From the sequence record MT446390.1: a stretch of 64,000 bases of DNA. One strand, written 5' to 3'. The translations under genes were made by a program, and so were the position numbers. Numbering within the stretch: the stretch's first letter is position 1; each line of letters opens with the position of its first letter. The notes under the pieces were generated by a model that searched no databases, had not been told where the DNA came from, and saw only the letters and a program-made list of their open reading frames with translations. Below are positions 2,906-10,701 of this stretch, in pieces. The stretch comes from Escherichia phage TH12.

Positions 2906-3070
2906 ATGACTACTTTAATTATTTGGTTCGATGAAAATGAAGAAACATACTGTGTGAATATTGGTGAAAGTCCAATGCCTGAATTTGAATCCTCAGATAA
3001 AAACTCTGTTGTATCTTGGGCTGAAGGTTATAAAGCCGCTAAAGGTGACGTTGAAATAATTTACATCTAA
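2906..3070 (+). CDS. small hypothetical protein (54 aa), absent from ORF track
   Basis: ATG 11 nt after AGAGGAG; fills promoter-to-gene gap. Confidence 0.45.
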   Translation: MTTLIIWFDENEETYCVNIGESPMPEFESSDKNSVVSWAEGYKAAKGDVEIIYI

Positions 3071-3117
3071 GTACGTTTATGTTATAGTAATCACATCAAA
3101 TCAAGAGGAGAAACAAA

Positions 3118-3372
3118 ATGGCTAAAGTTAGTATTGATGTCGTTGATTACGAATACACCGAAGAAGTTATTCGCAACCGTCACCCTGAAGTTCGTATCGA
3201 TTCAGCCCAAGATTCCAAGTTCTGGACAACTGAGCTTAATCTGAGTGGTCCTTATGAAGCTGTTAAGAAGTTCATGGTTGAAGAATACTGTGAAGGCATG
3301 CACCCCGAAGACGCCAAGTTTTATGTCAATTTGATTAAAAATAATTTACAAACTCTTGAGAGCAGAGTATAA
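3118..3372 (+). CDS. hypothetical protein (84 aa)
   Basis: ATG after AGAGGAG RBS. Confidence 0.55.
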   Translation: MAKVSIDVVDYEYTEEVIRNRHPEVRIDSAQDSKFWTTELNLSGPYEAVKKFMVEEYCEGMHPEDAKFYVNLIKNNLQTLESRV

Positions 3373-3392
3373 TGCTCTCATTGGATAATAAA
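3349..3392 (+). repeat. 44-bp repeat copy 1 (hairpin GAGAGCA..TGCTCTC with TATAAT in loop)
   Basis: Near-identical to 32461-32504, one mismatch. Confidence 0.8.
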
Positions 3393-3414: not shown

Positions 3415-4008
3415 ATGAACACACTGAAGAAACTTGTTGAATTCATCCGCACTAAACTGGGTACTGCTATGGCTAAAAATCTGACTGTCGAAGAACAGTA
3501 TAACGCAGCTGCAGATAAGTTGATTACCCAAATCAAAGAACTAAAAACGGCTTCTGTTAAATCTATTAATGAAGAAAAACGTATTCGCGAACTTGTTATT
3601 GAAAAGAATAAGCAAGCCGCTTCTAAGGAACGTGAAATTCGTAAGCTCCTGGCTGAAGGACAAGATGTTACCATGCATGCTAAGCTTGGTCTTCTGTATC
3701 GTCGAACTGCCGAACAACTTAATACAAAAGCTGACGGGTATGCCGCTATGCGAATTGAAATTGCTCGTAAGGTGGTTGAACTTGATGATGCTCGTCAGAA
3801 TCTGGCAATCAAACTCGAATACATTCGTGAAACTCGAGCAGCCAATGCCCTTGGTATCTCTACGGCTGATGATGTAATTGAAATCGCTGCACTGACTAAG
3901 GTTGATATCGAAGACACTCTGACTCGTGTTGAAACGTTCAATGGTACTCCAGCCGGTGTCGAAACCACTTCTGCTGATGTACAAGAATATATTAACTCTT
4001 TGAAATAA
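3415..4008 (+). CDS. coiled-coil protein (197 aa), possible PspA/IM30-like
   Basis: Heptad-rich, charged sequence; family call from recollection only. Confidence 0.5.
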
Positions 4009-4057: not shown

Positions 4058-4654
4058 ATGCGAAACCAAAATAATGATATTGACTCAATGTTCGAAGAGT
4101 TCCGAGATAAGGTAAATCCACCTACGTCTTTAGTTGATTCATTACGATATGTTGCAACCGGACGTAAATGGTACTGGTCGTCTTCTTATGAGACAACTGA
4201 ATATGCAAATAACCGAAAATCTTTATTAGCCCCAGGTATTATGATTCATGATATCGGAGCTATTGCTAAACTAGTTGCAGACCATGATATTAGATTCACT
4301 GATTTCGTTGCTCCTACGTGGTCTGTTTGTTGTTTAAACACCGAATGGGACTATATCAGTGAACGTTCAGATGATTACGTAGGCTTTAGAGACAAGCTTT
4401 TAAGGTCTAACATGTTTTATATTGATACAGAAGTTCTTGTCAATAATAAAAAATACTACTTCACTTTAATCGTCGATTCTGAAACTATGTATGAAGGCAA
4501 GCCTTTGCTTAAGAGAGTTGATGCTTTAAGTGCTATTGATGCGCTTTATGAAACTATGGTTGTTAGTCCTAATTTCACTAACAATTTAATCCTTGAGCAA
4601 TTTATTATGGAATGTAGAGAATATGTCAAAGCCAACCCTATACATGCCAAGTAA
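4058..4654 (+). CDS. hypothetical protein (198 aa)
   Basis: ATG after AAAGGAG. Confidence 0.55.
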   Translation: MRNQNNDIDSMFEEFRDKVNPPTSLVDSLRYVATGRKWYWSSSYETTEYANNRKSLLAPGIMIHDIGAIAKLVADHDIRFTDFVAPTWSVCCLNTEWDYISERSDDYVGFRDKLLRSNMFYIDTEVLVNNKKYYFTLIVDSETMYEGKPLLKRVDALSAIDALYETMVVSPNFTNNLILEQFIMECREYVKANPIHAK

Positions 4655-5015
4655 GCCCTGGGCGTATGAATACAAGCGTAAATTAATCCCAAATGAAGTA
4701 CTATTTGGCCCTATTTTAGCTTTAGCATTTTTAATCTTTATGATTATAGGAGCCGTTTTAGATTCTAGTGAAGTTATATCGTCTGATGCAGCATTTTCAT
4801 TAATGTTCGACGCACCACTTATTGTACCGTTTTTATTAATGCCTATTAACTGGATGGGATATTGGTACCAAGGACGTCATCACAGAGCCCGATTAAGAGA
4901 ATGGAAAGTTCAGTGCGCAAAAGCCCAAGCTCAGTATGATGAAGCTGTTAAAAAGTATGAATATGAAGAAGCTATGGAATTCGTTAAGGAAATAAGATGC
5001 AAAAGCCTTAACTGA
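4623..5015 (+). CDS. small membrane protein (about 130 aa, two hydrophobic helices); start uncertain
   Basis: ORF track; first in-frame ATG at 4623. Confidence 0.45.
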   Translation: MSKPTLYMPSKPWAYEYKRKLIPNEVLFGPILALAFLIFMIIGAVLDSSEVISSDAAFSLMFDAPLIVPFLLMPINWMGYWYQGRHHRARLREWKVQCAKAQAQYDEAVKKYEYEEAMEFVKEIRCKSLN

Positions 5016-5024
5016 ATTTATGCT

Positions 5025-5054
5025 GTTTACGCTTCTCAAATGATTAGTTATAAT
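5025..5054 (+). promoter_or_regulatory. early promoter (GTTTAC, 18 nt, TATAAT)
   Basis: Consensus-like -35 and -10. Confidence 0.55.
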
Positions 5055-5113
5055 GAACTCCTAGCTAAACGTGAAAATGAAACAATCGAAAACTTTATTA
5101 AGGAATGTAGAAA

Positions 5114-5419
5114 ATGAGTAAGATTATTGAAATTAAAGTACCAGAGTTTAATGATGCCAAATCCGCTTCAGATGCAATTTATAAACTTCTGAATCAAGCT
5201 GAACGTATCGAAGAAGAAGCAACAAAGATCGCAGACCAATATGCAGTATCATTTTCTGTAGGTGATTATGGTAGCGGCCGTACTTATTATCCTAAGGGTG
5301 AAATCGTATCCCAGTGGATGAAAGATGAAATTGAAAATAATGGTGGCGATGTTAAGCGTGAAGGTAATGGTTACGTTATTACTGAAGGTGCTTGGGTTTC
5401 GTCTTCTGCGTTGTGCTAA
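5114..5419 (+). CDS. small protein, paralog family member 1 (C-terminus GAWVSSSALC)
   Basis: ORF; shared C-terminal motif with the next two genes. Confidence 0.55.
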   Translation: MSKIIEIKVPEFNDAKSASDAIYKLLNQAERIEEEATKIADQYAVSFSVGDYGSGRTYYPKGEIVSQWMKDEIENNGGDVKREGNGYVITEGAWVSSSALC

Positions 5420-5428
5420 GGAATCATT

Positions 5429-5701
5429 ATGTCTAAAGAACAAACCGAACTGGCTGAAGCTGTAGCAAAAATCTATGCAGCTATTGAGGCTGCCAAAGAA
5501 ATTGCTAATAAACAAAACACAACATTCAACTTGTATCCAGCTTATGGCATGGGTGGAACCTATCATTCACCAGGACATCTTAAAGCCGATCTTGAACGTT
5601 GTACAAAAAACGGTTATGCTGAATGGGCCGACGTTTACCAATACGACTACAACTTGAGCCTTGAAGATGGTGGTTGGGTTGCATCTTCTCACACTTGTTA
5701 A
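5429..5701 (+). CDS. small protein, paralog family member 2 (C-terminus GGWVASSHTC)
   Basis: ORF; RBS AAGGAA. Confidence 0.55.
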   Translation: MSKEQTELAEAVAKIYAAIEAAKEIANKQNTTFNLYPAYGMGGTYHSPGHLKADLERCTKNGYAEWADVYQYDYNLSLEDGGWVASSHTC

Positions 5702-5710
5702 GGAAATCAT

Positions 5711-5908
5711 ATGTCTCGTGAATTAGATTGTGCTGTACGTACGGCCGTAGCTGCTCTAGAAAACCTGTTCCAGATTGCAACCGAAGAGCGTGAAGAAGTT
5801 ACATTGTGGATTGAAGATAATGCAGGTCTGAATCTCCAGGACGCAATCTCGTTATCAAATAATAGTATTACTGTTCAAGGCTGGGTATCATCTAGTTATT
5901 CTTGCTAA
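5711..5908 (+). CDS. small protein, paralog family member 3 (C-terminus QGWVSSSYSC)
   Basis: ORF; RBS AAGGAAA. Confidence 0.55.
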   Translation: MSRELDCAVRTAVAALENLFQIATEEREEVTLWIEDNAGLNLQDAISLSNNSITVQGWVSSSYSC

Positions 5909-5912
5909 AACA

Positions 5913-5942
5913 GTTTACAACAAGATAGGGCTATGTTATAGT
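5913..5942 (+). promoter_or_regulatory. early promoter with embedded stem-loop (GTTTAC ... TATAGT)
   Basis: Near-palindrome GATAGGGCTA / TAGTCCTATC around the -10. Confidence 0.5.
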
Positions 5943-5970
5943 AGTCCTATCAAATTAAATGGAGACAACA

Positions 5971-6210
5971 ATGGTTTATTACGAAAGTATAGGAACCGAA
6001 GTAGTTGCTAAAACTATTACTCGTGAAAAGTTTGCAAAGATATTCGATATGCGTTATAAAAAATCTGAACACAAAGGCATCCGATTCGAAGATGCGCACT
6101 GTACAATTTGCCCTTATAATGAAGACATAAACGGCACAATCGTTCCATTAGTAGAGGCTTCACATGACGACCTCTGGGATGAATATAATATCGCATGTCG
6201 CGAAATTTAA
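5971..6210 (+). CDS. hypothetical protein (79 aa)
   Basis: ATG after GGAGA. Confidence 0.5.
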   Translation: MVYYESIGTEVVAKTITREKFAKIFDMRYKKSEHKGIRFEDAHCTICPYNEDINGTIVPLVEASHDDLWDEYNIACREI

Positions 6211-6235
6211 GTAATCTAAATTCGAGGAAAATATT

Positions 6236-7192
6236 ATGATGTTAGTTATTGGTTCTCGTGCACTTCACTATCACGGTCTTATTGATTCTAGCGCTATCAA
6301 AAATAGTGACTGGGACTTTATTGCGGACCAAGGTTCTTGGAATGTATTCAAAAATCAAATGATGGGTGTATATGTTCACCAAGATAACCCTGATGTCCAA
6401 GTTTTCAAATGCTTCCATAATGGACGCGAAACTCATTTTGAAGCATATATTGTTCCGGCAATCACTAATGTCCGTGAATTAGTCGGTGAACTCACTCCTG
6501 AAGATTTCACGTCTTCTTATGACCTTTTAAAATACGCCAAGAAAAATTTGACTAAAGACCGTTTGAACGGGTTTTACTGGGCAACTCCTGAGATGTGTCT
6601 TGCAATTAAGATGTCTCATCGTTTCAAGAAAAATAATCCATTCTTTTTAAAGACTATGAACCATATTCAGTATCTTCGTGGTAAAGGTGTTACACTTAAC
6701 GATGAACTTACTGAAATTATGCTGAAACGCCAGAAAGAAACCTTGAACTATGCTCACCCAGTTCTTGACACTTCTAAAAGCGCATTCTTTAAAGATGACA
6801 TCTATACGTATGACCATGATACTATTCACGAAGCCATTGCACTAACAGACCGTCCAGCGTATACATTTTATATGAAAGATGGTTCTGAAGTCATGACCTC
6901 ACGCGAGAAGTTCGAATCATTACCAGAAATGGTCAAATTAGCCGGCGTATACGAAGAATCATGTGTACTAGCGTTAGAACGTTCTCAGATTCCTAATAAC
7001 TTTGAAATCCATCCACGTGATAGTTTTATGATGGCATTAGAAAAAGTCTGTACTTCAATCACGTCAGGCTGGTTCCGTGAATACGCTTGGGAAAACTACA
7101 GCAAAGTTGTAAGTATGTACCAAAGCTTAGGACATGACGATTATGTAAAACGTTTTAAACAAAATTTCCATATGGTAAAACCTTTCAAATAA
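6236..7192 (+). CDS. hypothetical protein (318 aa)
   Basis: Long ORF, GAGGAAAA RBS. Confidence 0.6.
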   Translation: MMLVIGSRALHYHGLIDSSAIKNSDWDFIADQGSWNVFKNQMMGVYVHQDNPDVQVFKCFHNGRETHFEAYIVPAITNVRELVGELTPEDFTSSYDLLKYAKKNLTKDRLNGFYWATPEMCLAIKMSHRFKKNNPFFLKTMNHIQYLRGKGVTLNDELTEIMLKRQKETLNYAHPVLDTSKSAFFKDDIYTYDHDTIHEAIALTDRPAYTFYMKDGSEVMTSREKFESLPEMVKLAGVYEESCVLALERSQIPNNFEIHPRDSFMMALEKVCTSITSGWFREYAWENYSKVVSMYQSLGHDDYVKRFKQNFHMVKPFK

Positions 7193-7204: not shown

Positions 7205-7234
7205 GTTTACACAATTATAGGACTATGTTATAGT
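7205..7234 (+). promoter_or_regulatory. early promoter with palindrome ATAGGACTAT/TAGTCCTAT
   Basis: GTTTAC, 18 nt, TATAGT. Confidence 0.5.
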
Positions 7235-7569: not shown

Positions 7570-8256
7570 ATGAATAGTTCTAAAGTGTTTAATAGTCAAG
7601 CTCGTGCAGTAGGTGGTTTTGCTCATAACGTACAAAATGACCAAATCAAAAATGAACCAATGTTCTTTAACTGTGATTTGAGTTTTGCTTGGGATAACGG
7701 CGGTCCTATTACTCGTAGCTTTATTGCCAATCTCCCAATTGATTGGACTAATCAACATGTTGTATTTGATTCTCGGGTTCATATGCTGATGCCTGGTTGG
7801 TATCCTGCTATTCCTGGATATCACCATGACGATGTTCCTCGCCCTGATATTCCAGTCGGCCAACACTTTATTACTGCAGGACAACCTGACTATGATAACC
7901 CTCGTTACCATTCTGAACATATTCTTGGTCTTGTTAACGCTGACGTGTGTCCTACTCATTTTGCAACAGGAACTGCAGAGTTCAGTCAGATTCCTGATGG
8001 CGAACTTATCTATCGCCAATGGCACAAAGAAGTCCTCGAAAAAATTGAAAAAGGTGAACTAGAGAAATGGGAAGCTCCAGACCGTACTCTTCTTCAGTTT
8101 GATTGGCAAACATGGCACACTGGTTCTCGTGCAATTAGTAATGGATGGCGTTGGTTCGGACGTGTATCTCGTAATACAGACCGAGTTAAAAAGATTACCA
8201 ATGAAATTCGTGTCAATGCCCAAGTTTATCTGGAATTCCCTATGGAAGGCTGGTAA
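7570..8256 (+). CDS. hypothetical protein (228 aa), His/Asp-rich
   Basis: ORF; GAGGAAAA RBS; no confident family. Confidence 0.55.
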   Translation: MNSSKVFNSQARAVGGFAHNVQNDQIKNEPMFFNCDLSFAWDNGGPITRSFIANLPIDWTNQHVVFDSRVHMLMPGWYPAIPGYHHDDVPRPDIPVGQHFITAGQPDYDNPRYHSEHILGLVNADVCPTHFATGTAEFSQIPDGELIYRQWHKEVLEKIEKGELEKWEAPDRTLLQFDWQTWHTGSRAISNGWRWFGRVSRNTDRVKKITNEIRVNAQVYLEFPMEGW

Positions 8257-10287: not shown

Positions 10288-10701
10288 ATGACTCGTATCA
10301 ATTTAACACTTGTTTCTGAACTGACCGATCAACATCTTATGGCTGAGTATCGTGAATTACCACGCGTATTTAGTGCAGTCCGTAAACATGTCCAAAACGG
10401 TAAACGTGTAAAGGATTTTAAAATCTCTCCAACATTTATCTTAGGCACAGGTCACGTAACATTCTTTTACGACAAACTTGAATTTTTACGTTTACGACAA
10501 ATCGAGCTAATCGCTGAATGCTTGAAACGTGGTTTCAAAATCAAGGACACGACAGTCCAGGATATTTCCGACATCCCTGCCGAATTTCGTAATAATTATG
10601 TCCCGTCCGAAGCGTCCGTTGCGATAAGTCAAGCACGCTTAGATGAAAAAATTGCTCAACGTCCTACTTGGTACAAATACTATGGTAAATCAATTTACTA
10701 A
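10288..10701 (+). CDS. denV: endonuclease V (pyrimidine-dimer DNA glycosylase)
   Basis: [12 protein letters not shown]...TWYKYYGK, near-identical to T4 DenV. Confidence 0.95.

Follow-up and report, generated by a model that had tools for sequence, protein, structure and literature searches.

Small phage proteins sharing an invariant cysteine-ended tail are encoded next to a predicted nucleotidyltransferase

The window analysed here is a 64,000-nucleotide stretch of Escherichia phage TH12 (MT446390.1), an RB69-like, T4-type phage (Mosigvirus). Between tRNA genes on one side and the nudE/lysozyme genes on the other, it carries an array of three small consecutive genes on the plus strand. ORF1 (5114..5419) encodes 101 residues with a pI of 4.6, contains a DYGSGRTYYP-type segment and ends in GAWVSSSALC. 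ORF2 (5429..5701; 90 residues, pI 5.0) is of the YGMGGTY type and ends in GGWVASSHTC, and ORF3 (5711..5908; 65 residues, pI 4.05) ends in QGWVSSSYSC. The tail corresponds to W94-V-S-S-S-A-L-C101 in ORF1 (5393..5416), where C101 is the C-terminal residue, to WVASSHTC in ORF2 (5675-5698) and to WVSSSYSC in ORF3 (5882-5905), all on the plus strand. A GGA(A) ribosome-binding site precedes the ATG of each gene, and those of ORF2 and ORF3 overlap the preceding stop codon (TAAGGAA). The sizes, positions and tails of the three genes, as well as their individual ribosome-binding sites, are as described in the initial annotation.

The counterparts of ORF1–3 in RB69 are ORF139c, ORF137c and ORF136c. The same triplet is present in phage JS98, where the record notes equate the three homologs with these RB69 genes. 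ORF1 and ORF2 belong to phrog_899 and ORF3 to phrog_4882, both annotated as function unknown in PHROGs. The array region is 96–99% identical to many Escherichia and Shigella phages. Compared with three close relatives, the changes are mostly synonymous, with pN/pS values of 0–0.09 for ORF1, 0.04–0.16 for ORF2 and 0–0.03 for ORF3, indicating real genes under purifying selection. Diversifying evolution is therefore not supported, at least on short timescales, as selection within the genus is strongly purifying (pN/pS 0.00–0.16).

Two database entries lack the Cys tail. The RB69 ORF139c reference (P0002, 71 aa) is a frameshifted or truncated version, and the annotation of the ORF2 homolog of phage mar005P1 (P0046, 75 aa) is likewise frameshifted or truncated. 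Sequencing errors may account for this, or the tail may have been lost, in nature or in the laboratory. Many close relatives, among them phage 55 and JK45, have one more predicted membrane-protein gene (~360 nt), inserted upstream of ORF1 and downstream of the gene for a 140-aa membrane protein. At this position (5016-5113) the window instead contains ~100 nt, including an early-promoter-like site, which splits the matches of the relatives in two. A 'sulfurtransferase' annotation in phage JK45 refers to the membrane protein encoded upstream rather than to ORF1–3, and does not have Pfam support.

The relationship between the three genes is uneven. ORF1 and ORF2 are homologous over their whole length and have the YGxGxTY motif in common, whereas ORF3 is devoid of this segment. 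A profile built without ORF3 matches it only over the last 17 residues, and profile–profile comparison of ORF3 with ORF1/ORF2 yields an alignment limited to the last 14 residues (93% probability). The initial annotation of three paralogs thus stands for ORF1 and ORF2, while ORF3 shares detectably no more than those 14 residues with them. Judged by these comparisons, the tail is the common unit, and the bodies that carry it can differ strongly. Searches of Pfam, NCBIfam and PADLOC with ORF1–3 returned nothing significant, and neither did a sequence search against the PDB.

The AlphaFold model of ORF1 is confident (pLDDT 93.4). A long helix (residues 15-43) packs on a small sheet, the last β-strand includes W94, and a short helical turn at the C-terminus is formed by S97-L100. 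The predicted fold does not match any of the PDB chains it was compared with. As W94 falls within a β-strand of the model, the tail may in part have a structural role instead of being exposed.

Endings of the form W..S[ST]..C are found in 3 of the 946 stop-to-stop ORFs of at least 30 residues in the window, exclusively in ORF1–3, and chance does not account for this pattern. Beyond the window, the family profile, run against 1.84 billion cluster representatives, matches 709 clusters at 50% identity (E<=1e-3). Across hundreds of these clusters the Trp, the Ser-Ser pair and the terminal Cys are nearly invariant, which bears out the view of a conserved tail on diverged bodies. Among the 136 family representatives listed, 128 terminate exactly in Cys; these have W at position -7 in 126 cases, S at -4 in 127 and S at -3 in 125. 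Six of the eight remaining sequences have one extra residue after the Cys. The Cys is the only one in the protein in 85 of the 136. In an alignment of 38 sequences, W94, S97, S98 and C101 are invariant, and A40, Y52, G53, G55 and T57, which mark the DYGSGRTYYP / YGMGGTYYP motif, are nearly so. The family is strongly acidic, with a median pI of 4.4 and a median net charge of about -9. In T4, no ORF other than tk.1 (10346-10549 in locus L128, E 0.034) shows even marginal similarity to the profile of the small family. tk.1 does not have the Cys tail, and the match is probably due to chance.

The tail is conserved as protein. All six Ser codons occur at the two invariant serines in a set of 109 distinct tail-coding sequences, with AGY codons numbering 28 and 34. 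Within the window, the codons of the Ser region differ as well (TCG TCT TCT, GCA TCT TCT and TCA TCT AGT). The use of both TCN and AGY codons at invariant serines indicates that selection acts at the amino-acid level.

Five intergenic sites of the form (G)TTTAC(A/G)-N17-TATA(A/G)T are found on the plus strand of the window (3060-3088, 3345-3373, 5026-5054, 5914-5942 and 7206-7234). The site at 5026..5054 (TTTACG-N17-TATAAT), a consensus match only, is located in the gap before ORF1. The one at 5914..5942 (TTTACA-N17-TATAGT, with TG) separates the array from the downstream genes. By their sequence, the five sites look like T4-type early promoters that would split the accessory region into short early transcription units. 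The late-promoter sequence TATAAATA has its nearest occurrences at 1753 or 11095, none of them close to the array. The N-termini of ORF1–3 are hydrophilic (MSKIIEIK, MSKEQTEL and MSRELDCA), and the three products are probably early cytoplasmic proteins. We rejected the idea that they are internal head proteins with a capsid-targeting sequence, as only early-type promoter-like sites, and no late one, are found near the array.

Downstream of the site at 5914..5942 is an ORF of 83 residues (5959..6210, plus strand; phrog_3723), which has no tail and no match in Pfam, NCBIfam or PADLOC. It recurs in only 15 of the 80 enzyme-anchored loci described below and is probably not core to the module. The next gene (6236..7192, plus strand) starts 0.3 kb downstream of the array and encodes a 318-residue homolog of RB69 ORF134c. 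DUF7277 and DUF7275 are its only Pfam matches, and searches of NCBIfam and PADLOC, as well as a sequence search against the PDB, gave no significant match. The structure model (pLDDT 92) contains a Pol-β nucleotidyltransferase core and a helical C-terminal lobe, as in MenT/AbiEii, and bears structural likeness to MenT1/3/4, ANT(2'') and LnuA. G6, S7, D25, D27, E69, K125, H128, H194 and D195 are among the residues that are invariant across 32 homologs. In sequence terms, this is the hG[GS]...DxD...carboxylate pattern of Pol-β-type nucleotidyltransferases, so that the catalytic motif is intact in the predicted fold. The catalytic set of MenT/AbiEii enzymes (DUF1814) consists of hG[GS]...DxD, a further carboxylate, and Lys and Asp residues contributed by the helical lobe (K137 and D152 in MenT1), for which K125 and D195 would be the candidate counterparts in the window enzyme. 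The AbiEii/DUF1814 profile PF08843 does not match any of the 32 homologs at E<=10. Downstream of the enzyme gene there is a 228-residue ORF without a Pfam match (7570-8256), which is present in 23 of the 80 enzyme-anchored loci.

The key result of our analysis is the linkage between the tail family and the gene of the DUF7277+DUF7275 protein, which exceeds ordinary synteny. This conserved gene, the main clue to the array, is not mentioned in the initial annotation. The starting clue was provided by two distant family members, one on a 371-kb jumbo-phage contig and one on an 87-kb contig, that lie just upstream of a DUF7275 protein; both loci contain two tail ORFs. Our enzyme-anchored sample comprises 80 IMG/VR loci with DUF7275 homologs that are 38–98% identical to the window protein. 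The family profile finds members in 67 of them, and an ORF ending in W..S[ST]..C is present in 71. In these 71, the number of tail ORFs is one in 26 loci, two in 23, three in 10, four in 11 and five in a single locus. Most remaining loci have divergent tails, giving an overall range of 71–77 out of 80. Among the divergent tails, short W-x-G-S-S-C variants are found in L071 and L085, and the largest array seen (L081, 6030-7645, on a 368-kb jumbo-phage contig) consists of five tandem divergent copies with FW[IV]PSSM[SE]C ends and directly precedes the enzyme gene. A few enzyme loci, such as L030, apparently have no tail ORF.

Order and orientation are nearly fixed. With one exception, located immediately downstream, the tail ORFs of the 80 loci are found upstream of the enzyme gene on the same strand. 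Out of 17,028 ORFs, 152 carry the tail pattern, and 148 of these fall into one 3.5-kb same-strand upstream zone, compared with 4 among the ~15,000 ORFs outside it (Fisher p about 6e-146). Three of these four, too, lie upstream of the enzyme gene, in loci that are placed differently. In the reverse direction, 37 loci were anchored on the YGMGGTY motif of the small family. The enzyme gene is just downstream in 35, and the other two are contig ends (35/35 testable loci). Each of the other genes next to the array in the window is present in no more than 29 of the 80 loci anchored on the enzyme. The gap between the nearest tail ORF and the enzyme start is at most 30 nt in 11 of 106 loci and at most 100 nt in 29.

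The pairing spans T4-like, jumbo, Pseudomonas, Acinetobacter and Aeromonas phages as well as environmental and unclassified contigs. The enzyme family contains 2221 clusters at 90% identity. Copies of the enzyme in 185,579 bacterial and archaeal species genomes number just five, each of them on a metagenome-assembled contig, which indicates that the module is essentially viral. Neither gene was found in the complete T4 genome, which may explain why the pair has been unstudied. Our literature search found no description of the module, of RB69 ORF139c/137c/136c, of DUF7275 or of a Cys-tailed partner family.

From their sequences and arrangement, the tail family and the enzyme look like a two-component phage module, built from one nucleotidyltransferase and 1–5 small acidic tagged proteins. 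We assign a probability of roughly 0.55 to ORF1–3 being functional, dedicated partners of the nucleotidyltransferase at 6236-7192, with which they would interact physically. The three proteins would be expressed early and act in the cytoplasm together with the enzyme. The C-terminal W-x-x-S-S-x-x-Cys would be the element recognised by the enzyme, on variable bodies that differ between the paralogs. The Trp, Ser-Ser and Cys stay constant while the rest changes, even on an otherwise dissimilar body, and the tail is therefore best explained as a site that meets a conserved partner. As the enzyme is the only conserved partner, we propose that the tail occupies its acceptor site. It would sit in the acceptor/active site, where MenT-type enzymes hold the RNA 3' end. 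This tail-in-active-site mechanism is less certain than the partnership itself. The initial annotation had suggested a shared anchor or modification site; a common site for docking or modification agrees with the near-obligate linkage to the single predicted nucleotidyltransferase, and the anchor is not supported (see below).

Some features argue against such a partnership. Antitoxins do not usually come as arrays of 1–5 divergent copies. Between the array and the enzyme gene of the window there are a promoter-like site and the unrelated 83-aa gene, suggesting that the coupling is looser than in classical toxin–antitoxin operons. A conserved linkage, taken by itself, could also reflect common regulation or membership in one pathway, with no direct contact between the products.

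If the tail does reach the active site, it could play one of several roles. MenT toxins add nucleotides to tRNA 3' ends. In the MenA1–MenT1 pair, a short protein antitoxin encoded upstream blocks the toxin (PMC10435456). By analogy, the tail could be a pseudo-substrate plug that restrains the enzyme; we offer this tentatively, as slightly likelier than a role as acceptor. It fits the resemblance to MenT and the gene order. As in MenAT/AbiE pairs, the small gene is located upstream on the same strand (71–77/80; 35/35 testable loci). However, there are 1–5 copies of the partner, and other genes are often found in between.

The tail could instead be a true acceptor that is nucleotidylated on Ser or Cys, by analogy with GlnD-PII or MntA-HepT. 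We regard this as doubtful, although it fits the reactive nature of the invariant residues and the presence of multiple paralogs. The known nucleotidylation acceptors in MntA-HepT and GlnD-PII are Tyr residues on HEPN or PII proteins. In contrast, the invariant residues here are Ser-Ser and Cys, the partners are neither HEPN nor PII proteins, and the gene order is opposite to the usual mntA-hepT. ORF1–3 do not show HEPN features: there is no Rx4-6H motif, no Pfam match and no PDB fold match. To our knowledge, Ser or Cys nucleotidylation has not been described for this type of enzyme. A similarly speculative extension would be a virus-specific protein–nucleotide conjugation, in which one or more nucleotides are placed on the tail Ser or Cys of small carriers, and the paralog bodies steer the conjugate to host or defence targets.

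One short invariant C-terminal motif on several different proteins, together with one co-occurring enzyme, is also reminiscent of the sortase/LPXTG and exosortase/PEP-CTERM systems, as an analogy only. Those tags serve cell-surface sorting of proteins with a signal peptide, whereas ORF1–3 are probably cytoplasmic and the enzyme is a predicted nucleotidyltransferase, not a transpeptidase.

Anti-defence phage nucleotidyltransferases of the Pol-β type were reported by Ho et al. in phages BCP1 and Av05; they are found in accessory-gene regions, sometimes near NAD-salvage genes, and the type has been shown to make competitor cyclic dinucleotides (10.1101/2022.06.09.495361). No tail-family partner is reported there (10.1101/2022.06.09.495361). 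The enzymes described here are likewise phage-encoded in an accessory region, and in one 87-kb environmental phage contig (L009) a NAMPT/NAPRTase-like gene (4323-5990) directly precedes the tail-family gene (6001-6279). A pattern search of the window enzyme finds neither GS-x-AY[GAN]T-x4-SDxD nor NP-x-h2[DE], the motifs of the Ho et al./RlaP enzymes, and we rejected membership in this family on the absence of the motif. PF10127, which represents the RlaP / T4 NrdC.11 type, matches neither the window enzyme nor the 32 homologs, and blastp detects no significant similarity between the window enzyme and T4 NrdC.11 (E>=2.4). NrdC.11 itself contains the near-match GSHLYGTSTPESDVD, which has L in place of A and fails the exact GS-x-AY[GAN]T-x4-SDxD pattern.

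The strongest rival to a dedicated partnership is that ORF1–3 are effectors directed independently at the host, for example by inhibiting host defence or host enzymes or by serving as decoys for them. Their tail would bind a host target or a metal, and they would merely share an accessory-gene island or a pathway with the enzyme, without contacting it. The genes are small, acidic and apparently early, and their location, the hyperplastic stretch from the tRNA genes to lysozyme, is where T4-like phages typically keep accessory genes. In the window, array and enzyme gene each have a promoter-like site of their own. Often the two are separated by unrelated genes, and the lone invariant Cys together with two Ser could bind metal in an oligomer. 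However, the pairing is kept in jumbo, Pseudomonas, Acinetobacter and Aeromonas phages and in unclassified contigs, where other synteny is gone, and the order and strand of the genes are fixed. The invariance of the tail is also hard to explain across hosts that range from enterobacteria to unknown environmental taxa. On balance we consider independent effectors unlikely, and prefer the partnership.

It is considerably less probable that ORF1–3 are RiPP-like or cofactor precursors whose S-x-x-Cys tail is chemically processed, into a thioether, an aminovinyl-cysteine-type structure or a released small molecule, with the enzyme as maturase. Epidermin-type peptides use an S-x-x-C-COOH arrangement for AviCys. 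A Ser three positions before a C-terminal Cys is also found here, in 125 of the 128 Cys-ending representatives among the 136 listed, and tandem precursor-like genes in 1–5 copies upstream of an enzyme would suit such a pathway. Against this, the model of ORF1 (pLDDT 93) is a compact fold into which the tail is integrated, and the neighbours do not include a dehydratase, an HFCD/LanD-type decarboxylase or a radical-SAM gene. The terminal Cys is missing in 8 of the 136 representatives, six of which extend one residue beyond it, and the core, usually variable in RiPPs, is invariant here. A likeness of SSSALC to the IscS 'SSGSAC' loop was discarded as a lead, as the domain is folded and there is no supporting enzyme nearby.

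A lipid anchor or disulfide tether at the terminal Cys, the other part of the initial annotation's proposal, is very improbable despite the invariance of this residue. ORF1–3 have no signal peptide, lipobox or CaaX-type context, and the Cys is the last residue rather than four from the end. The T4-type early promoter-like sites point to early proteins in the cytoplasm, a reducing compartment, most members have a single Cys (85 of the 136 listed), and no membrane or secretion gene is consistently linked. Finally, the similarity of the tails could be ascribed to a repeat at the DNA level or to a compositional artefact left by recent tandem duplication, without a selected protein function. This notion is refuted by the mixed TCN/AGY serine codons, the pN/pS values of 0–0.16 and the spread over 709 clusters, even though the TAAGGAA-N-ATG junction downstream of both ORF1 and ORF2 fits duplication of whole gene units.

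The enzyme comes from a known superfamily, and nucleotidyltransferases paired with a small partner were known as well. What is new is this partner family, its tail, the variation in copy number and the restriction to viruses. Through the linkage, two Pfam domains and two PHROG families, all of unknown function, gain a testable context. The results also point to a relative of the MenT/AbiEii enzymes that is carried by phages; the bacterial enzymes act as tRNA-modifying toxins and abortive-infection effectors. The module would be a likely player in host takeover or counter-defence. A plug or acceptor function of the tail, if true, would be a new way to control or use such an enzyme.

In JS98 (L003, NC_010105), an unannotated fourth tail-family ORF (3790-3999, plus strand; MTIDEIEK...GFWFSSSMSC) directly follows the annotated orf129-127, and equivalents of it are present in several Dhakavirus-like loci (L011, L013 and L021).
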